A stretch of DNA of 64,000 nt. Source: Stegostoma tigrinum (lineage: Eukaryota). The stretch spans positions 2,108,001-2,172,000 of the forward strand of contig NC_081358.1 of NCBI RefSeq assembly GCF_030684315.1, read 5' to 3'. Each line of letters starts with the position of its first letter. Positions within the stretch are counted from its first letter, which is position 1. The notes beneath the pieces are model-generated. The model had not been told where the DNA came from, made no database searches, and saw nothing but the letters and a program-made list of their open reading frames with translations. Below are positions 4,230 through 59,600 of this stretch, piece after piece. The translations under genes and the position numbers were made by a program.

Positions 4230-4630
4230 GTGACGGTGGCCGTTCTCCTCGGCCCCGAGAGCGCGAAGCCCCGGCCCCAGCCGCTACCGAGAGCCGGAGG
4301 CTCAGGCTGGGCCTCGGCCCGGCAACAGCAGGAGTCGGACCGACGGTGTGAGGGCTGGCCGGACCGATATGGCAGTGAAGACCCGAAGCTGGAGCCGGGG
4401 CCGGGCCTTGGCCGAGGATACGGAGCGCAGCCCTGCCTCCGGGAACAGGCCCACGACCAAAGCCGCCAGCCCGCGGCGGGAGCGCCGAAAGGAGTGTGCG
4501 GTCCCCAAGAATAAACCCTCCGCCGTGGGACACTCCGGCAAATGGGTAACCGGCATCCGAGGGCCGCTAGGACTCACCGACTCGGCGCTCAGCAGCTTGG
4601 GGACTACCATCGTCCTGGGTGAGGGGCGGG
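4230..4630. promoter_or_regulatory. CpG island over the 5' UTR and exon 1 of the DPY19L1-like gene
   Basis: Abrupt GC- and CpG-rich stretch in an otherwise AT-rich, CpG-depleted window, overlapping the start codon. Confidence 0.8.
4369..4618 (+). CDS. dpy19l1l: DPY19L1-like coding exon 1 (MAVKTRSW...SLGTTIVL, ends phase 1)
   Basis: ATG in context GATATGG inside the CpG island; basic N-terminus leading into the first TM segment; donor CTGG|GTGAGG; phase matches exon 2. Confidence 0.85.
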
Positions 4631-4644
4631 AGAGGGGTGGGGGG

Positions 4645-6490
4645 GGAGTGCAGACTGGAATATGGGGGATGGTGGGGGGGAGTGCAGACTGGAATATGGG
4701 GGGTGGGGGGGGGGAGTGCAGACTGGAATATGGGGGGTGGTGGGGGGGGGAGTGCAGACTGGAATATGGGGGGTGGTGGGGGGGAGTGCAGACTGGAATA
4801 TGGGGGGTGGTGGGGGGGGGGAGAGTGCAGACTGGAATATGGGGGGTGGTGGGGGGGAGTGCAGACTGGAATATGGGGGGTGGTGGGGGGGAGTGCAGAC
4901 TGGAATATGGGGGGTGGGGGGGGGAGTGCAGACTGGAATATGGGGGGTGGGGGGGGGGAGTGCAGACTGGAATATGGGGGGTGGAGTGCAGACTGGAATA
5001 TGGGGGGTGGGGGGGGGGAGTGCAGACTGGAATATGGGGGGTGGTGGGGGGGGGAGTGCAGACTGGAATATGGGGGGTGGTGGGGGGGAGTGCAGACTGG
5101 AATATGGGGGGTGGTGGGGGGGGGGAGAGTGCAGACTGGAATATGGGGGGTGGTGGGGGGGAGTGCAGACTGGAATATGGGGGGTGGTGGGGGGGAGTGC
5201 AGACTGGAATATGGGGGGTGGGGGGGGGAGTGCAGACTGGAATATGGGGGGTGGGGGGGGGGAGTGCAGACTGGAATATGGGGGGTGGAGTGCAGACTGG
5301 AATATGGGGGGTGGGGGGGGGGAGTGCAGACTGGAATATGGGGGGTGGGGGGGGGGAGTGCAGACTGGAATATGGGGGGTGGGGGGGGGAGTGCAGACTG
5401 GAATATGGGGGGTGGGTGGGGGGGGGGGGAGTGCAGACTGGAATATGGGGGGTGGGTGGGGGGGGGGGAGTGCAGACTGGAATATGGGGGGTGGGTGGGG
5501 GGGGGGGAGTGCAGACTGGAATATGGGGGGTGGGTGGGGGGGGGGGAGTGCAGACTGGAATATGGGGGGTGGGTGGGGGGGGGGGAGTGCAGACTGGAAT
5601 ATGGGGGGTGGGGGGGGGGAGTGCAGACTGGAATATGGGGGGTGGGGGGGGGGGAGTGTAGACTGGAATATGGGGGGTGGGGGGGGGAGTGTAGACTGGA
5701 ATATGGGGATCGGGGGGGGGAGTGAAGACTGGAATATGGGGATCGGGGGGGGGGAGTGTAGACTGGAATATGGGGATCGGGGGGGAGTGTAGTCTGGAAT
5801 ATGGGGGGTGGGGGGGGAGTGCAGACTGGAATATGGGGGGTGGGGGGGGGGAGTGCAGACTGGAATATGGGGGGTGGGGGGGGGAGTGCAGACTGGAATA
5901 TGGGGGGTGGGGGGGGGAGTGTAGACTGGAATATGGGGGGTGGGGGGGGGGGAGTGTAGACTGGAATATGGGGGGTGGGGGGGGAGTGTAGACTGGAATA
6001 TGGGGGGTGGGGGGGGGAGTGTAGACTGGAATATGGGGATCGGGGGGGGGAGTGTAGACTGGAATATGGGGATCGGGGGGGGGAGTGTAGACTGGAATAT
6101 GGGGATCGGGGGGGGGGAGTGTAGACTGGAATATGGGGATCGGGGGGGGGAGTGTAGACTGGAATATGGGGATCGGGGGGGAGTGTAGTCTGGAATATGG
6201 GGGGTGGGGGGGGGAGTGCAGACTGGAATATGGGGATCGGGGGGGGAGTGTAGACTGGAATATGGGGTGTGGGGGGGGGGGAGTGTAGACTGGAATATGG
6301 GGACCTGGGGGGTGGTGGGGGGGCAGTGCAGACTGGATATAGGGATTTGGGGGAGTGTAGTGTAGACTGGATTACGGGGAGCTGGGAGGGTGAGGTGTAG
6401 TGTAGCCTGGATTACGGGGATGTGGGGTGGGATTGTAGACTGGAATATGGGGACCTGGGGAGGGGTGGGGTAGTGTCGACTGGAATAAGG
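4645..6490 (+). repeat. G-rich minisatellite, ~30-36 bp unit (GAGTG[C/T]AGACTGGAATATGGGGGGTGGGGGGG), about 50 copies, start of intron 1
   Basis: Directly visible repeat with a constant AGACTGGAATAT core and variable G-tracts; degenerates towards 6490. Confidence 0.97.
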
Positions 6491-9591: not shown

Positions 9592-9616
9592 CTATCATTG
9601 CAGGAATTTTACATTG
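9592..9616 (+). CDS. dpy19l1l: DPY19L1-like exon 2, 25-nt microexon (AIIAGILHW)
   Basis: Polypyrimidine tract plus TTTTACAG acceptor and TG|GTAAGT donor; matches the conserved A..A..LHW segment. Confidence 0.88.
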
Positions 9617-12103
9617 GTAAGTGTTATTGATTACTTTGCAGATGTCTACTTTGGATTTTTAGGAAGTCTAACGTGTAGAAAAGTTGCTGCTGTCTTGCAT
9701 TGAATGAGTTTTGGTTTCTTGAATCAATTGACTTGCTCTTTGAATAATTTTAATGTGACAAAGCAATTTATATTTGCACTTGTGCATAAAAGTTATGTTA
9801 GTTAAGGTAAGAAATAAGATCAGATGGAGACTAATTTCCTTAGTATTATTCAAGTATTGACATCTGTAAACTTAGCAAATTTCAAAAATAGCACAAACTA
9901 TTTAAAAATTAGGTAGTTTATGTTTTTTACATAGATAAAGACAGCATTTGTGAAATTATTGGCATGTGGCTAAAGTTTTGTTTAGCAGTCGTCATAAGAA
10001 TTCAGAATACCGAAAAGGAATTGCTTTATTACTGGTTTATCAGAACTGGCAGTACCAGCAGATAGTGTAAACTGCAGTGATTGAGTGCCAGTTTAACAAT
10101 TCATTTACTTTTCCAGGAGATTCGGTGAAGCAGGATTGGGATATGTAAAGTTGTTCTAAGGAGATGATATTTTCCCACAGCAATTATTAGTTTAATTTGT
10201 TTTAACATGTAGTTAAACATAATAGTGCTGATATTTGCTCTGTTTCTCAATAAGTAGTTGTGTAACATTTTATTAGGCAATGTCCGTTTGAACAAACATC
10301 TTTTTGAATTTTAGTGTGATGTTGTCAAATTAATCACTGGTTAAATTTTATCCCATTAAGAAGTTGAAATGAAGTTTGGGGATTTTTTTGAACAAAGTCT
10401 CATTGGGAAAGCGAGAAGACTAAGACCATTGGGAGAAATTTATACTACCACAGTACAAAAGGAGATTGGTGCACCAAGAGAGAACTGGAAAGGAGGCAAA
10501 ATACCAGAACATTCTTCTGATATTGCAACAAAAGAGGGATAGTCAGGGAGTAAGTCTAAATTCTCAGGAACCGAAGTGCATGATGTGCAGCGCAGAGGAG
10601 ATAATTAATGTGCTAAAACATCTGTACTGGGAATTTTATCAAAGGTAAAAAGCAATGTGGTTTTATTCCACTTCAGACACTTGTCCTCTGTGATCTGAGA
10701 GTTTTGTGTGAAACATTGTTACTGGTTGGGTGATGGGGATGAAATCTAATTCATTCCTCAACGGAGCTTGAATGCACCTAGAAACGATGGAAGTGAGATT
10801 TGGTAGTTCTTGAGAGAGTGCCATTAGCCAGTGGAGATTTTTCAAAGTGTACTTCTTTGTTTAACATAAACTAGATGACCAGTGATTTATTAGTCTGATA
10901 TGACTTATGGCCAGATTCTTAAATCTTAATTCATGTTAAAATTAGAAAGTGTCCACGTAGGCATGAGTTAATCAAGGAGGATCACTGCTAATTTGTTCAA
11001 GGCATGTCATGCTTGACAAATGTGAAACAAAAATAGATATACATTTCTATAGCCTCTTTTGTGATGTCAAGCTGACCAAGCGAGTTCTGGAAGTGCAGTC
11101 ACTTTTGTAATGTAGGATACACAATAATAAGGCTGTGGGCAGCCAGCACCTGCAGTGAGAGAAACAGATAATCTGTTCTCATGGTAACCTTCAAGATCTT
11201 GGCTAGATTGGAGAACAAAAGTAAAGTACACAGAATGTGAGAAACAAATTTAGGGCCCAGTTAAGAGTTTCTATTCATACTGCTGATCAACAGGTTGCCA
11301 GGTCTGGTAACTCCATGACTGGCAGATGACTAGTTGTTGTCCGGAAGTAGCTGCCTGTGTCCTTCAAAAGTATGAGATCAGGTGGCTTAAGGGTATTTTC
11401 CATCTAATTTTCTTAAATTAATAGACCATAGTTTTCAGCAATACAACAAACAAAACAAGTTCTTCCACCTCATATACACAACAAGCCTGGGGAAATATCA
11501 GATTAATGTGTCACTGCTAATAATTTGCTTGCTTTCAGTTATCATATAGTTAGTTACTTTTCTTCTGTTCTCTGTAGTTATCTTCAAGCATATGAGATTG
11601 GAGACTTTAATATATTGTTTGAAAACCGTTTACCAGTTAAGTTTAAATTTTTTAGATGGCTTGACACTGAAAAGCTGTTTCCCCTTGGCTGGAGAGTCTA
11701 ATGATTAGAGTCATAAACTCAAAACAGACACTATTTAAAACGCGGACTAGGAAAAATTTCTTAACTGAGTATTATGAATCTTCAGAATTGTCTATCCCAT
11801 GTGCTGTGAGTGCTTAGTCATTGAATACATTCTGCTCTGAGATCAAATCGATTATAATAATCTCAGGGAATCAAAATATATCAGGACAGCCCGGAAAGTG
11901 GTAAGAAGGTAGAAGTTTCAAAGGTGATATTATTGAATGGCAGTTCATGCTGGTGGGTATGTATGATCTCTACCTGCTCATTTTAAGGTTGTTAGCTACA
12001 GCATGTGTGATAGAATTAACTTGTCTGTTAAATCAACAGCAGCTTTCCTGAACATTTTTTAAACATTGCTTCCAGAGTTCAGAACAAACTAATTTTGCTC
12101 TAA

Positions 12104-14043
12104 GATAAAATGTGAAGCTGGATGAACACAGCAGGCCAAGCAGCATCTCAGGAGCACAAAAGCTGACGTTTCGGGCCTAGACCCCTCATCAGAGAGGGGA
12201 ATGGGGAGAGGGTTCTGGAATAAATAGGGAGAGAGGGGGAGGCAGACCGAAGATGGAGAGAAAAGAAGATAGGTGGAGAGGAGAGTATAGGTGGGGAGGT
12301 AGGGAGGGGATAGGTCAGTCCAGGGAAGACGGACAGGTCAAGCAGGTGGGATGAGGTTAGTAGGTAGGAGATGGAGGTGCGGCTTGAGGTGGGAGGAAGG
12401 GATGGGTGAGAGGAAGAACAGGTTAGGGAGGCAGAGACAGGTTGGGCTGGTTTTGGGATGCAGTGGGGGGAGGGGAAGAGCTGGGCTGGTTTTGGGATGC
12501 AGTGGGGGGAGGGGATGAACTAGGCTGGTTGTGGGATGCGGTGGGGGAAGGGGAGATTTTGAAGCCGATGAAGTCCACATTGATACCATTGGGCTGCAGG
12601 ATTCCCAAGCGGAATATGAATTGCTGTTCTTGCAACCTGCGGGTGGCATCCTTGTGGCACTGCAGGAGGCCCATGATGGACATGTCATCTGAAGAATGGG
12701 AGGGGGAGTTAAAATGGTTCGTGACTGGGAGATGCAGTTGTTTATTGCGAACCAAGCGGAGGTGTTCTGCAAAGGGGTCCCCAAGCCTCCGCTTAGTTTC
12801 CCCAATGTAGAGAAAGCCCAACCGGGTACAATGGATACAGTGTACCACATTGGCGGATGTGCAGGTGAACCTCTGCTTAATATGGAAAGTCATCTTGGGG
12901 CCTGGGATGGCGGTGAGGGAGGAGTTGTGGGGGCAAGTGTAGCACTTCCTGCGGTTGCAGGGGAAGGTGCCAGGTGTGGTGGGGTTAGAGGGCAGTGTGG
13001 AGCGAACAAGGGAGTCACGGAGAGAGTGGTCTCTCCGGAAGGCAGACAAGGGTGGAGATGGAAAAATGTCTTGGGTGGTGGGGTCGGATTGTAGATGGCG
13101 CATGTGTCGGAGTATGATGCATTGTATCTGGAGGTTGGTGGGGTGATGTGTGAGAACGAGGGGGATCCTCTTTGGGCGGTTGTGGCGGGGGCGGGGTGTG
13201 AGGGATGTGTTGCGGGAAATGCGGGAGACGCGGTCAACGACGTTCTCGACCACTGTGGGGGTAAAGTTGCGGTCCTTGAAGAACGTGGACATCTGGGATG
13301 TGCGGGAGTGGAATGCCTCATCCTGGGAGCAGATGCGGCGGAGGAATTGGGAATAGGGTTGGAATTTTTGCAGGAGGGTGGGTGGGAGGAGGTGTATTCT
13401 AGGTAGCTGTGGGAGTCAGTGGGCTTGAAATGGACATCAGTAACTAGCTGGTTGCCTGAGATGGAGACTGAGAGGTCCAGGAAGGTGAGGGATGTGTTGG
13501 AGATGTCCCAGGTGAACTTGAGGTTGGGGTGGTAGGTGTTGGTGAAGTGGATGAACTGTTCGAGCTCCTCTGGGGAGCAAGAGGCGGCGCCGATACAAGC
13601 ATCAATGTAACGGAGGAAGAGGTGGGGTTTGGGGCCTGTGTAGGTGTGGAAGAGGGACTCTTCCACGTAACCTACAAAGAGGCAGGCAGGGGCCCAAGCG
13701 GGTGCCCATGGCCACCCCCTTTGTCTGTAGGAAGTGGGAGGAATCGAAAGAGAAGTTGTTGAGGGTGAGGACGAGTTCCGTCTCCCCTGGACTGACCTAT
13801 CCCCTCCCTACCTCCCCACCTATACTCTCCTCTCCACCTATCTTCTTTTCTCTCCGTCTTCGGTCCGCCTTCCTCTCTCTCCCTATTTATTCCAGAACCC
13901 TCTCCCCATCCCCCTCTCTGGTGAAAGGTCTAGGCCCGAAATGTCAGCTTTTGTGCTCCTGAGATGCTGCTTGGCCTGCTGTGTTCATCCAGCTCCACAC
14001 TTTGTTATCTTGGATTCTCCAGCATCTGCAGTTCCCATTATCT
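12104..14043 (-). mobile_element. Penelope-like retroelement, family A, 5'-truncated, RT C-terminus plus GIY-YIG endonuclease, inverted pseudo-LTRs
   Basis: Minus ORFs 12890..13666 (FLRYIDACIG, LTFLDLSV, KPTDSHSYL) and 12423..13292 (CNRRKCYTC, NVVHCIHC...YIGETKRRL), frameshifted. Inverted ~230 bp repeats at 12104-12333 and 13777-14009. TSD CTAATTTTGCTCTAA at 12089-12103 and 14044-14058. Confidence 0.93.
12161..12196 (-). ncRNA. Minimal hammerhead ribozyme motif in the 3' pseudo-LTR of the Penelope element
   Basis: Minus strand reads ct-CTGATGA-gGGGTCTAGGCCC-GAAAC-GTC-ag, with an intact core. Confidence 0.7.
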
Positions 14044-14068
14044 CTAATTTTGCTCTAATTTACCTTAG

Positions 14069-14156
14069 GTACCATATATCTAGTCTTTTTGAAAATAATC
14101 GACATTTCTCTCACCTTTCAACGCTAGAAAGGGAAATGGCTTTTCGCACAGAGATG
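14069..14156 (+). CDS. dpy19l1l: DPY19L1-like exon 3 ([29 protein letters not shown])
   Basis: CCTTAG acceptor, ATG|GTAAGC donor; near-invariant DPY19 motif. Confidence 0.96.
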
Positions 14157-14209
14157 GTAAGCATTTGAGCTATATTATTGATGAAACCCAGGGCCTGCAG
14201 TATAACTAG

Positions 14210-14349
14210 GATAATAAAGTGTGAAGCTGGATGAACACAGCAGGCCACGCAGCATCTCAGGAGCACAGGATGCTGCTTGGCCTGCTGTGTTCATCCAGCT
14301 TCACACTTTATCATCTTGGATTCTCCAGCATCTGCAGTTCCCATTATCC
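14210..14349. mobile_element. Fold-back mini Penelope insertion (family A pseudo-LTR ends in inverted orientation plus tail)
   Basis: 14210-14255 is the reverse complement of ~14269-14316; tail TGGATTCTCCAGCATCTGCAGTTCCCATTATC; TSD CTGCAGTATAACTAG / CTGCTGTATAACTAG at 14195-14209 and 14350-14364. Confidence 0.85.
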
Positions 14350-15358
14350 CTGCTGTATAACTAGCCTACCTAACATCAACTAGCCAGATGAGTCTGCTAA
14401 ATGGCAGTCAAGGTATTAGGTAACGAATGTGGTGTTCTGAATTTGAAATTGCCATTGACTGACCTCATTTCTAGCCCTATTAGTCTCCGCCATTCTGCTA
14501 AATTATATTCGGTTTCTGTAAAGGAGGCCACTTTGTCACGTTCAAGACCCCTGCATTTTGCTCCTACTGCAGGAAAATTGTGCTTGTGAAATATGGAAAG
14601 TTGTAAAAAACAATTTTGCATCCTTAAAGTTGCATTTGGAGATTGATGTGACAACATGATTTTTTATAATTAAAATAGAGAAACTGATTATTGGTGACTC
14701 CCCCTTGTGGTTTGATCTTCTGCTTGAATTGAGTGTTGTGTGTACAGATCCTTTTGCTTTCGGTGTACTGCTATTTGTTGCTGCTATTTATGCTAACACT
14801 TGCTGTGTTCTTCACTATTCATATATTTGTAATCCTTGAAAATGGAAGCAGTTTACTTCATTATTCACTCAGTTGAAGTATGGTACTGTGGCAAAGACCC
14901 ATTAATGGAACTGAGTAAATGGGAGCTTGCTGTTGGCAGTTCTAATCATCAGCTAATTCTAATGGTGTTGAAATTGGCTTTTCTTCTCATCAGGTGCCAG
15001 GGAAGAATATGTCCAAGAACATTAACTGGGGAAGATTAACATATAGAAGCCTGATTGAGTCTGAAAATGTTTAGGGGCATTCAGCTTTTATTGATCTCTA
15101 TGGGCAAAGGCAGAAGAGCCAAGAACAGTAAAGTCCACTGTGGGTGCTGTGATGTACAGCTGTCCCAGATTGTCATGTGCAAACCTCTGCTACAGTTGGA
15201 CAGAAAGTGATAGCACAGCTGTGATGGCAGTTTGTAAGGATGTATGCAATGTATGTCTATCCAACCTTCTTGAACAGAGGCTGTCCATCGTCTGTTGATT
15301 TAATAATGAAATCTGTTTATGTTGGGGAAAAAAAACCATATGAAATTCAGCAATGCTG

Positions 15359-15934: not shown

Positions 15935-16072
15935 GGCTTGTATTATTCTTTCTTTAAGACCATCATTGAAGCACCTTCATATTGTGAAGGTTTAAGTAAC
16001 ATCATGAATGATCGGTTGACTGAATATCCTTTGGTTATCAACACCTTGAAGCGATTCAACCTTTATCCAGAG
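15935..16072 (+). CDS. dpy19l1l: DPY19L1-like exon 4 ([15 protein letters not shown]...[10 protein letters not shown])
   Basis: TTCTAG acceptor, GAG|GTAGGT donor; 46 codons; overlaps ORF 15938..16180. Confidence 0.96.
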
Positions 16073-34754: not shown

Positions 34755-36571
34755 ACCACCCCACCCACCCACATAGGTCCATGATTCATCTGATGCCTTA
34801 CGCCGGTTTCAAAGCTTCCAATTTACTGGCTCTAGCCACCTCTTCTTTACCGTGGACGTGCAATCCCTTTACACATCCATTCCCCACCAGGAGGTTCTTA
34901 GGGCTGTCTGCTTCCTCCTGGAGCAAAGACCTGAACCATCCCCCCACTCCCCCCATCACCGCCCTTCTCCACTTGGCCGAGCTTGTTCTCACCCTCAACA
35001 ACTTCTCTTTCAACTCCTCTCATTTTCTTCAGGTAAGAGGGGTTGCCATGGGTACCCGCATGGGCCCAAGTTATGCCTGTCTCTTCATGGGGTATGTGGA
35101 GCATTCCTTGTTCCAGTCCTATTCCGGCCCCTACCCACAACTCTTTCTCTGATACATTGATGTCATCAGTGCTGCTTCGCTGTCTCATCAAGAATTGGAA
35201 AACTTCATCAATTTCACCTCCAATTTCCACCCTGCCCTCACTTTCACCTGATCTATCTCTGGCTCTTCCCTTCCTTTCATCGACATTTCTGTTTCCATTT
35301 CAGGGCATAGACTGGCCACTAATATCCATTACAAACCCACCAACTCCCACAGCTACTTAGACTATACATCCTCACACTCCACTTTCTGCAAAGACTCCAT
35401 CCCATTTTCTCAGTTCCTCCGTCTCCGTTGCAAATGTTCAGATGAGGCCAACTTCGACAAGGGAGCCTCCGAATGTCAACATTCTTTCTCAACTGAGGAT
35501 TCCCCAGCTCCGTTGTTGACAGGGCCCTCAATTGGGTCCGACCCATCTCTCTCACTTCTGCCCTCACCCCTTCTCTTTGCTCCCACAACAGTGATAGGGT
35601 CCCCCTTATCCCCACCTGCCATCCCACCAGCATCCACATCCAGAAGATCGTCAGACGCCATTTCTGCCACCTCCAGCAAGATGCCACCACCAGACACATA
35701 TTGTCCTCCCCGCCCTTGTCCACCTTCTGCAGGGACCGTTCCCTCCGGAACACCCTGGTCCACACTTCCTTCACCCCCAACACCTCCCCACAGCCCTACG
35801 GCACCTTCCCTGAAACCTACGAAGGTGCAACACCTGCCCATTCACCTCGCTCCCCAGAATCCAAGGGCCCAAACATACCTTCCAGGTGAAGCAACACTTC
35901 ACCTGCACTTCCAAGAATCTAGTCTACTGCATTTGCTGCTCACAATGTGGTCCCCTCTACATTGGGGAAACGAAGCGTCGACTTGATGGTTGGTTCGCAG
36001 AACGTCTACGTTCTACTCGCAAGAAAGACCCTGAACTACCTGTTGCCTGCCACTTCAATGTACCTCCTTGTTCCCTGGCCAATATCTCGGTCACCGGCTT
36101 GCTACAGTGTTCCAGTGAAGCCCAGCACTAGCTGGAGGAACAACACCTCATTCTCCGCTTGGGGACCCTACAGCCCTCCGGACTCAATATTGATTTCAAT
36201 AATTTTAGGACCTAAACTCCCCCATATCCCAGCCCCCCCACCCCACACACCAGGCCTTGTTACCACACAGCCTACCACTACACACCCCCTCTTGTTCGTC
36301 ACTAACAGTCCCCATTAACAACTACTCACCCTCCCAGCCTGACCGTCAGCAACTCCTTTGTCTGTCCAACTGTCTTTCTCTCTCTTTGGGCTCTATCCTA
36401 TTGTTTACTTCCAACCCCACCCACCTCCCTGTTTTCTGCATATAAACTGATGTTTTCCCAGCCGCCATCAGTTCTGAGGAAGGGTCACCAGACCCGAAAC
36501 GTTAACTCTGTTTTCTCCTCCACAGATGCTGCCAGACCTGCTGAGTTTTTCTAGCAATTTTGTTTTTGTTC
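34755..36571 (+). mobile_element. Penelope-like retroelement, family B, 5'-truncated (RT plus GIY-YIG, 3' pseudo-LTR)
   Basis: [70 protein letters not shown]; several stops and frameshifts; candidate TSD CTGCAAACA at 34746-34754 and 36572-36580. Confidence 0.92.
36469..36507 (+). ncRNA. Minimal hammerhead ribozyme motif in the family B pseudo-LTR, sense to the host pre-mRNA
   Basis: agtt-CTGAGGA-a-GGGTC acca GACCC-GAAAC-GTT-aact; perfect helix II and 4-bp helix I. Confidence 0.72.
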
Positions 36572-46674: not shown

Positions 46675-46818
46675 AAAAAAAAACAAAAGAACTGCAGATG
46701 CTGTAAATCAAGAAGAAAAACAAAGTTGCTGGAAAAACTCACTAGGTCTGGCAGCATCTGTAAAGGAGAAAACAGAGTTAACGTTTCCTCGAACTGAGGA
46801 AGGGTCACCGGACCCGAA
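46675..46818. mobile_element. Mini Penelope insertion, family B (inverted tail-bearing pseudo-LTR end plus truncated hammerhead core)
   Basis: Reverse complement of the family B end and tail, then CTGAGGAAGGGTCACCGGACCCGAAA; TSD ATGAATTTTTAGAGG / ATGAACTTTTAGAGG at 46660-46674 and 46819-46833. Confidence 0.8.
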
Positions 46819-51798: not shown

Positions 51799-51927
51799 GA
51801 TAGTAGGAACTGTTGATGCTGGAGTCTGAGATAACAAGGTTATGAAGCTGGAGGAACACAGCAGGCCAGGCAGCATCAGAGGAGCAGGAAATCTGACGAT
51901 TTGGGTCTGGACCCTTCTTCAGAAAAT
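51799..51927 (-). mobile_element. Diverged family A Penelope pseudo-LTR end with tail
   Basis: GATAGTAGGAACTG...GATAACAAGG...GAACACAGCAGGCCAGGCAGCATC; candidate TSD TCATTAACCCA / TCATTAGCCCA at 51786-51796 and 51928-51938. Confidence 0.7.
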
Positions 51928-56600: not shown

Positions 56601-59600
56601 TGTAAGGAGCTCTTCCCTTTGCTCAGTTCTGTCACCTGATGTGACTTGGAGTTTATTATTAGAGGCAAGCTGTAACAAGTCAGCAAAGAATGTGTATTTT
56701 TAAAAGAATTAGGGGAGAGATGAAACATTTATAAGATTTATAAAGCGACCTGTCGTGATCTGGATCTCGGCCTGAAAATGCGGTGGAAGCATATTCAATG
56801 GGATTTGAAAGGAAATATTTGGAGGGTGAGTTGGAGAGTGGGGTTAATTGCATAACTTTTTGAAGATTAAACATAACTCATTTTATACTGTTCTAATTCC
56901 ATGGTAAGCCAAATGGCATAGCCTAAGAGAAATACTTATTATTGGAAGAGGGAGTGACGTGGCTGCTACAACACAATCAAATTATCATGAAGGAATTACG
57001 TTGTGTTTCTCTCTGCTTGCCATTTTGGACCACTTTGTAGTATACTTAATTTGCAGAATGAGGAATATGTTGCAAGACAGGCAACACTTTCTAGACATCT
57101 AGTTTTAAGTTTTGAAGTTAAGTTGAATTATTAGTGCATTCAGTTCACAATACATTTGACCTCAAAGTAGTTATATCTACATAAGGGATGTACATATTGT
57201 CTTTTAGGTGGATAGGATGGGAGCTCAATACTCACCCTCCACCGTACAAGACGTTTATTGTACTCACAGCCTAAGATTGCCTGATCGATTCTTCAAAACC
57301 CGAATAGAGGTACACTGACCAGGTTCTATTTCTGTGATAGTTGGGTTGAGACAAGGGCATCATTACCTGATATAAAGAGGGGTAAGAACATTTAATTTTG
57401 TGGAATTATTTATTGGGTTTTCTATAGATTAATAGATAGAATAATGATCCATAGTTTAGTTATTAATAGCTTACTAGATAGTTTACTATTTTCTGATGTA
57501 GCCAGTGTAGTTTGTTTAGGAAGAGTTAAAATTGCATTTCACTGCTTATGCATTTTATGATTCCAGTCATTTGATCCACAGGGATTCACCGATATGTACT
57601 TTAAATAAGTAGAGATTTAACTGAATTCCTGTCAGAGAATGTATCAAAAAGTCATGCTGAATTATGGTCCACCTTTCAAAAGGAGTGAATATAAAGGTGC
57701 ACACAATTTCCTAAGAAAGGAATAGGCCATTCAGCCCCTTTAAACTTGTCCTAATGTTTACATAGATCATAAGCAAAATACTGCAGATACTAGAAATTTG
57801 AAGTAAAAATAAAATGCCAGAAATACTTAGCAGGTCAGACCATTCTCTCTCAAGGTCTGGCTGACTGCTGAGAATCTGCAACATTTCTGTAAATTTCATT
57901 TCATTTCATTTAGGCCATGCCTGATATGTTGTTAACTGAGATCTAGTCAAGTGATTAATTGAATAGATATATGGAATGCTCAGCATTTTAAAATGCAGCA
58001 CATGACAGTGAGAAATACAATGGGAAAGAACTTTAAATGAATGATTTCAATACAGGTGCACAAGGAATCGTATTGGAATTTGCTAATGGCATTGTCTTAA
58101 GCCAATGTTTAATTGAATGAAGCGTGCTGTAAATTGTAAAGATGAGTCTAGTTCAGCAGAATTAGCAGTTCCAGAGAATTCAAAAATAGGAAATGATGTG
58201 CACTCTAAATGTTTAAGGTGTAAAAAGAAGTGCAGAAATAATGAAAAGTTGGGTTAGGAGAATAGGTTTCAGGAAAGTAACTACAAGAATGCATGGTTTT
58301 ATGCATCATATCAATTCTTCATGATAGTGAATTTGTACATGACTTCAGTGATACAATGGTTGGAATATGATGTGGAATCAACATGTAGGCAGGTTATTAG
58401 AATCTCATAACAATTCATTAGTACTGAAGCAGGAAATAGATGGCATGAATAAAGATGTAAAAGAAAATTGGATTATCTCTTGTTAGAACAGAAACGGTTA
58501 AAGATAGTCTTAAATATTAAAATTTTGAGCAAACAGTGAATTGTTGAGTCCATAGGTTATGTCACCTACAACACTGTCTGAGGGCTATCACTGGGGGAAT
58601 GAAAGAGAGAATTGGAATAATTCTTTGGTGCACTGACAACTTAGAAGATATTTCTGCAGTATTTTTCGCCACCTCAATGTATATCGGACTTCTGATTTGC
58701 TGTTCCCTTTGTACATATCACCTGACCAGTGCATCACTCCATCAGTTGTGACCCACAATTGTACAACGCCTCCCCGGGACATGTTTCACTGCCCTTTCAG
58801 TATTTACTTGCAAAGTATCAACCTTTAATATGTGCTCCAATTTCTGGAGTGGGAGCTAAACTTCTGACAGCCTGGATTAGAAGCGATGCTGCCTTTTTGA
58901 GAGTGGAATATTTTCTGGGAATACCTATAGAGGCAGAGACTACCATGTCACTTAAAATGATTTATAATTGTGCTTGAAGCTATATAAAGTATACAGGAAG
59001 GTGGAAGTGGAGGCAGCTCCACTTAAGTCTCTACCACCAGTGGTTAGGACTGAGATATGATGAGTAAAGTTTTCTGTCATGACTAATTGTAGGTTTTCTC
59101 AGTACTGAATTTCAAACAAAAGGAGCCATCATCCAGGTTTATTATAGAACAAGGTTTCTTCTTCAAAGATGCAGAATTGGTTAACATTCTTTTGATCCCA
59201 GCTGATAATTCTACTGGACAAGTCAGATCCCAGAATGAACTCTGTCCTGATGAATTTTGTGTAAATTTTATTTAATTTTGTGGTCACTCAGTGAAATATA
59301 GTCTCACAAATTTGCAGAATTTCTTTTGCAATAGAATAGACATTTATTACACAAAAGATGAAAACACCGGGCTATCTAAATGTAGAACACGTTATAAAAC
59401 AGACAGTAAATCAAAGTTTTCAACCTGCTTTTCAATACCATAATTCTACCAAAATTCAGATCCAGAGAAATGAACCCTCTGTATCTATTCTTTAAGTTTT
59501 AGTACCTGATTCACCTGCTTTTGACTCTAGTCAGAGCAACTTTGAACTAACCTAAAATCTTTCAATCTCTAGGTTTTCTAAACCAAAATAAATCTCTGAC

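Follow-up and report, generated by a model that had tools for sequence, protein, structure and literature searches.

The stretch analysed here is a window of 64,000 nucleotides (nt) from Stegostoma tigrinum (contig NC_081358.1, positions 2,108,001 to 2,172,000), which contains exons of the gene DPY19L1. Exon 3, predicted to encode the catalytic glutamate (Glu) of the protein, lies between two Penelope-like insertions, both of which carry inverted arms. A first-pass annotation, made from the letters alone, had proposed that these insertions could have created a splicing switch at this exon.

The host gene and the insertions around exon 3

The host gene was assigned to DPY19L1, the best matches of exon 4 being named dpy-19-like 1. 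The numbering of exons 2, 3 and 4 agrees with the exon coordinates in the window, and exons 1 to 4 (Table 1) join into 167 codons without a stop. The Glu of exon 3 aligns with Glu71 of Caenorhabditis elegans DPY-19 (residue 71 of 7ZLG), the catalytic residue in the structure described in the accessible part of PMC10154233. Both the predicted orthology and the placement of the catalytic Glu in exon 3 are thereby upheld, with the correction that the RTEMGLY motif, earlier assigned to exon 3 as a whole, is split, with RTEM in exon 3 and GLY in exon 4. Skipping of exon 3 alone shifts the frame, as had been stated, and a stop codon is then reached after 58 nt of exon 4. A transcript with such an early stop is an expected target of nonsense-mediated decay (NMD).

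The larger insertion spans 1940 nt (12104-14043) and ends 25 nt upstream of the start of exon 3 at 14069, bounded by identical 15-nt target-site duplications (TSDs); the 1.9 kb element and the duplication described earlier were thus recovered. In a tblastn search with the relatives P0002, P0004, P0005 and P0009, which carry PF00078, PF01541 or PF26215, 12579-13781 was matched with 41-73% identity in the main pieces, and a direct Pfam scan of two open reading frames (ORFs) of the window returned no family. The Cys-rich linker suggests that the element may belong to the Neptune rather than the Penelope/Poseidon clade.

The features recognised at the locus are those of endonuclease-positive (EN+) Penelope-like elements, and they bear out the identity first given to the insertions. 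They comprise a reverse transcriptase with a C-terminal GIY-YIG endonuclease, pseudo-long terminal repeats (pseudo-LTRs) with an inverted 5'-truncated copy, a one-sided tail of 30-40 nt at both insertions (14010-14043 and 14316-14348), and a minimal hammerhead motif, intact in the left pseudo-LTR arm, changed in the right one and absent from the smaller insertion. No hammerhead in the window matched Rfam, and these motifs rest on a motif scan. In the portions available of PMC8557442, PMC4209133 and PMC11167929, EN+ Penelope-like insertions share the reverse transcriptase and GIY-YIG remnant, the inverted pseudo-LTR arms, a one-sided tail (33-34 nt at this locus; described in PMC8557442) and the minimal hammerhead (a class described in PMC4209133). 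No structural difference from them was found, the present copies being unusual only in where they sit, at 25 and 53 nt from the exon with the catalytic residue.

The second insertion is a stub of 139 nt (14210-14348) of the same family, with the design of the large element cut shorter. It starts 54 nt after the end of exon 3 at 14156, leaving 53 nt between them, and is flanked by a TSD of 16 nt with one mismatch (14194-14209/14349-14364), so that the second mini-Penelope element recorded 54 nt downstream of the exon is also confirmed. Matches of Rfam microRNA families over the stub fall below the gathering score and arise from a plain hairpin.

Table 1. Features around exon 3 of DPY19L1 (positions are those of the window)
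Feature	Position	Strand	Remarks
DPY19L1 exon 1	ends 4618	+	
DPY19L1 exon 2	9592-9616	+	25 nt
Upstream TSD copy, large insertion	12089-12103	+	one CTAAT, followed by neither a pyrimidine tract nor a well-spaced AG
Left pseudo-LTR arm, large element	12104-12333	-	pairs with 13777-14009
Minimal hammerhead motif	12165-12192	-	core intact; antisense to host gene; motif scan
ORF remnant (reverse transcriptase end and GIY-YIG endonuclease)	12579-13781	-	5'-truncated, frameshifted; tblastn with relatives
Right, inverted pseudo-LTR arm, large element	13777-14009	+	
Hammerhead motif, pre-mRNA sense	13918-13945	+	both core segments changed; likely inactive; motif scan
One-sided 34-nt tail, large element	14010-14043	+	two cryptic AG, ending 14022 and 14031
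Downstream TSD copy (14044-14058) and native acceptor	14044-14068	+	AG 14067-14068, preceded by a pyrimidine tract; branch A probably 14047 (-22)
DPY19L1 exon 3	14069-14156	+	88 nt, ends in RTEM
Upstream TSD copy, stub	14194-14209	+	16 nt
Fold-back stub, family of large element	14210-14348	.	arms at 14210-14267 and, inverted, at 14269-14315; tail reaching 14348
Downstream TSD copy, stub	14349-14364	+	1 mismatch
DPY19L1 exon 4	15935-16072	+	138 nt, starts GLYY

Splice signals, annotated isoforms and empty sites

The TSD of the large element contains the motif proposed as the branch point, the position of the branch A at 14047 being a consensus-based prediction. The duplication left exon 3 with its own likely branch A, pyrimidine tract and AG, and both acceptor and donor are intact. 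The CTAAT motifs earlier placed within the TSD are only partly duplicated: the first is present whole in both copies, and the second reads CTAAG in the upstream one. A working duplicate acceptor at the upstream TSD was rejected, the first AG there lying 12 nt from the branch A and the next ones being purine-rich; this upstream copy of the branch point is likely inert.

The tails of both elements bring in cryptic AGs, at 14022 and 14031 in the large element and at 14328 and 14337 in the stub. Use of the first two would add 46 or 37 nt to exon 3, and the other two, together with a donor-like site at 14420, could define a cryptic exon of 91 or 82 nt (14329-14419); all these products would be out of frame. 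The native acceptor has a pyrimidine fraction of 0.78, the highest of the four AGs compared, the others ranging from 0.61 to 0.72. As a separate observation, the tail looks acceptor-like in every copy when read in the stub's orientation, and could be a general source of exonisation.

In the nearest-orthologue cluster (15 members, 12 of them aligned), the three Stegostoma tigrinum isoforms that match exons 2-4 of the window at 100% all include exon 3 at the same splice sites. Annotated isoform models rest on RNA data. No isoform skipping exon 3 is found among these three, bearing in mind that protein models would miss NMD targets. In two isoforms from two other genera, P0104 and P0115, exons 3 and 4 are left out: exon 2 is followed by exon 5, and exon 1 is read in another frame. 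Their frame is restored by a second ATG in that other frame of exon 1, and the product would lack the catalytic Glu. The window keeps this alternative ATG and an open frame from 4542 (4542-4618, 9592-9616, then 18713 onward). Skipping of exon 3 is therefore annotated where the insertions are not known to be, and is not annotated where they are.

An empty-site comparison, named as a check in the first-pass annotation, was possible for the stub. In a DNA contig of organism B, 14044-14199 runs directly into 14355-14665, and the 155 nt that are absent correspond to the stub and one TSD. This contig begins to match precisely at 14044, behind 831 letters that do not match; the large copy is therefore apparently absent from organism B too, provided that these letters belong to the left flank. 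For organism C, exon 3 is spliced to exon 4 in a contig of a run that is presumably RNA, and here too the match starts at 14044, with 78 unmatched letters before. This contig (14044-14155), of a depth of only 3.3, retains 103 nt or more of the sequence before exon 3, which suggests that intron 2 is removed later or that an alternative start is used. Further read joints at the locus derive from other copies of the family and were set aside. Runs X1 (organism A) and X20 lack coverage of exon 3 and of exons 3-4, respectively, and were not counted as evidence; a contig of X1 crosses the right junction of the stub, but X1 may be the source sample, and this contig gives no independent support.

Organisms B and C share the 25-nt acceptor stretch (14044-14068) with the window. 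From the acceptor through the exon to the donor, 2 of 156 nt are different in organism B, compared with 76 of 1433 nt in six mostly intronic pieces, a count that leaves out one piece dominated by exon 4. Relative to the family majority, the ends of the large element show 0 differences in 80 positions and 2 in 41, and those of the stub 3 in 80 and 3 in 47, the median over 91 matches being 6.4%.

Inverted arms and predicted folding of the transcript

Four inverted pairs connect the arms of the two elements. The stem around exon 3 and the internal fold-backs of the first-pass annotation are present as sequence: 227 nt at 95% identity within the large element (12107-12333/13777-14003), 58 nt at 95% across exon 3 (13952-14009/14210-14267) and 47 nt at 96% within the stub (14210-14256/14269-14315). 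The fourth pair, absent from that annotation, is formed by the outermost arms (12104-12147/14269-14312, 44 nt, 98%). As sequence, these repeats are far above shuffle-type chance, and their arrangement is near that predicted by the density of the family. Since each copy carries both orientations of one end, any two neighbours are complementary, and the match across the exon needs no special cause.

In the minimum-energy fold with all arms present, cross pairs are absent, and the self-stems comprise 222 and 45 pairs. The ensemble fold of 12080-14360 gives 221.6 and 44.7 expected pairs in the self-stems, with a cross-exon pair probability of at most 0.0009. When the swapped state was forced (56 cross-exon pairs and 43 outer pairs, nested), its constrained minimum free energy lay 15.4 kcal/mol above that of the self-paired state. 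Four parameter sets were combined with two temperatures (27 and 37 °C) for a construct shortened by the inner 1.4 kb; the cross-exon helix was rare in all eight settings, its probability ranging from 4e-6 to 0.012. As isolated duplexes, the self-pairings have energies of -104.5 and -83.4 kcal/mol, and the swapped ones of -109.0 and -82.2 kcal/mol. It is thus predicted, with models that carry errors of several kcal/mol, that with all four arms each element pairs with itself rather than across the exon.

The order of synthesis would also favour self-pairing. In the accessible portion of PMC10901737, it is argued that the helices formed first are favoured, and PMC6283421, in the part available, reports that pairing within introns competes with pairing across them. 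Because ADAR is predicted to act on the self-paired stems as well, the models would not be told apart by A-to-G editing.

A close parallel is the loop-out of TBXT exon 6 by an inverted AluY/AluSx1 pair (accessible parts of PMC10901737 and PMC13019027), with which the present locus shares complementary transposon segments flanking one exon (here 58 nt, 95%) and a lineage-specific insertion. In contrast to TBXT, an inverted partner is built into each of the DPY19L1 elements, and it is longer (227 bp) or nearer (12-nt loop) than the 58-bp match across the exon; the range of probabilities given above does not predict the cross-exon duplex as the favoured fold. Moreover, skipping of DPY19L1 exon 3 shifts the frame, and the annotation of the matching proteins contains no skip isoform. 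In back-splicing driven by inverted repeats, the available parts of PMC6283421 and PMC5814467 likewise describe complementarity across an exon competing with pairs within introns; here, however, the within-intron pairs are predicted to win. The 88-nt exon is, in addition, smaller than the 200-300 nt quoted in PMC5814467 for efficient circularisation inside the lariat.

Origin of the arrangement and competing explanations

The family is very abundant. Its 36-nt end has 44,818 exact occurrences in the genome, and the 14-mers of its tail and head have 136,058 and 219,655, respectively. In 394 kb around DPY19L1 and its two paralogues, 91 end matches were found in about 63 elements, 28 of them as outward inverted pairs. 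Pairs of tail to head 150-180 nt apart number 178, compared with 145 expected by independence, and a special clustering of the two elements was thus discarded. Assuming 200,000 internal exons (our own figure) and no selection, 0.7-9 exons per genome are expected to be boxed within 30 and 60 nt.

Among 124 tails examined, 88 have an inverted head upstream and 32 a TSD of at least 10 nt; the length is 13-17 nt in 30 of these 32, which makes the 15-nt TSD of the large element the norm of the family. A strict target-site motif was also rejected: the starts of the TSDs vary, and CTRA appears in the first 6 nt of only 5 of the 32. This CTRA is branch-point-like, and microhomology with the end of the element may slightly favour such targets, at most as a tendency.

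The explanation that we consider probable is that two fold-back copies flank exon 3 with unbroken splice signals and self-paired arms, and that the exon stays included, the arrangement being a tolerated product of chance. According to this proposal, two independent insertions would have occurred after the split from organism B, and the 15-nt duplication would have copied the branch-point motif, so that exon 3 retained one for itself. During transcription, the large element could close its 227-bp stem some 200 nt ahead of the synthesis of the stub, the stub would then close its own 47-bp hairpin, and both stems would likely be edited by ADAR, leaving the exon unaffected. The mildly unusual part would be the survival of an insertion so near the acceptor.

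Several observations weigh against the explanation by tolerated chance. Annotated proteins would miss a skip product degraded by NMD. The absence of differences over the 80 nt of the right end indicates that the large element may be young; taking both elements as fairly young, the conservation of the exon is weakened as proof of function after insertion, and may mostly predate it. This is the sole boxed case (within 100 nt) among the 22 located DPY19L1 exons and 35 Dpy19 Pfam segments. In mammals, according to the accessible part of PMC3088655, insertions so near acceptors are depleted, and are enriched among harmful ones. The summed duplex energies are nearly tied (self -187.9 versus swapped -191.2 kcal/mol), and the verdict on the fold therefore rests on loop terms. 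The stem across the exon, which had been expected to compete with the internal fold-backs, can form, and wins outright (55.9 pairs) when the upstream arm is omitted, whereas the self-pairings dominate in the full context. About 14 cross-exon pairs also form if the transcript stops at 14268. Finally, the unpaired fractions of branch point, acceptor and donor are 0.23, 0.10 and 0.27 with the insertions versus 0.47, 0.29 and 0.42 without them, a weak result, from a long-range model.

Some of these points would fit a different explanation, namely that the insertions cause skipping of exon 3 in a few percent of transcripts, or use of the cryptic tail acceptors, owing to a cross-exon helix that forms transiently or to a crowded branch point, yielding out-of-frame products that are removed by NMD and have no role. 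The transient 14-bp helix, the near equality of the duplex energies, the cryptic AGs with the donor-like site, and stems whose ends come within 38 nt of the branch A and 53 nt of the donor all speak for it, as does the overrepresentation of inverted Alu pairs around skippable exons reported in the available portion of PMC13019027. However, no such isoform is among the three annotated for the matching proteins, the native acceptor is the most pyrimidine-rich, and the skipping of exons 3 and 4 in two other genera may be background unrelated to the insertions. We regard this explanation as rather unlikely. A much smaller probability is given to a regulated switch, in which the four arms would swap partners and, in some tissues, exclude exon 3 in a loop; ADAR editing or the speed of the polymerase would tune this, leaving less of the active DPY19L1. 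Such a switch would find its basis in the existence of the nested swapped state, in the small ensemble gap under some parameter sets (probability up to 0.012), in an exon that is both catalytic and frameshifting, and in the TBXT precedent of skipping caused by an inverted transposon pair (PMC10901737, in its accessible part). Nevertheless, the swapped state lies well above the self-paired one and is rare in every ensemble, the arrangement is expected by chance, we found no sign of selection in the cross-exon match (the arms are 95% alike, as in other family copies), and TBXT skipping is in frame, which that of exon 3 is not. With the self-pairings dominant, all matching isoforms including the exon, a duplicated branch point without a usable acceptor and an exon below the size quoted for efficient circularisation, the switch first proposed for this exon finds little backing.

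The most elaborate form of this idea, to which we would give very little credence, is a four-arm RNA junction in which the exon would be open as long as the arms are self-paired and looped out once they swap. The balance would shift when ADAR edits the self-stems or when the polymerase pauses within the stub, resulting in a transposon-derived, editing-gated off switch for C-mannosylation that would recur at other exons of the genome. A last explanation concerns the sense hammerhead, 125-150 nt upstream of exon 3, which might once have cut the pre-mRNA and been inactivated under selection. It would account for the changes in both core segments of the sense copy beside an intact antisense one, and among 36 scanned family copies a changed CUGAUGA segment was seen in only four. 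On the other hand, some core change affects 15 of the 36 copies (21 being intact), the minimal motifs were not cleaved as monomers in the work reported in the available part of PMC4209133, and there is only one sense copy here; this last explanation is hardly credible.

As it stands, the finding has little consequence beyond showing how near a catalytic exon large insertions can be tolerated. A literature search conducted without most subscription journals returned no report of exon skipping caused by Penelope-like elements. A more general idea is that fold-back Penelope copies would shield their own inverted arms, and this self-shielding may be the reason why more than 100,000 two-orientation copies sit in introns without Alu-type loop-out skipping. 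If a regulated swap of partners were true, it would show a novel way in which a splicing switch sensitive to editing can arise outside mammals.

Other features of the window deserve mention. More Penelope-like copies are found at 976-1150, 34979-35985, 46689-46759 and 51799-51923, one of them young and three more diverged. A long G-rich tandem repeat adjoins exon 1 at 4600-6400. Further downstream, an in-frame alternative DPY19L1 exon of 102 nt (34 amino acids; 57208-57309) is present in the long, and not in the short, isoforms of four genera.

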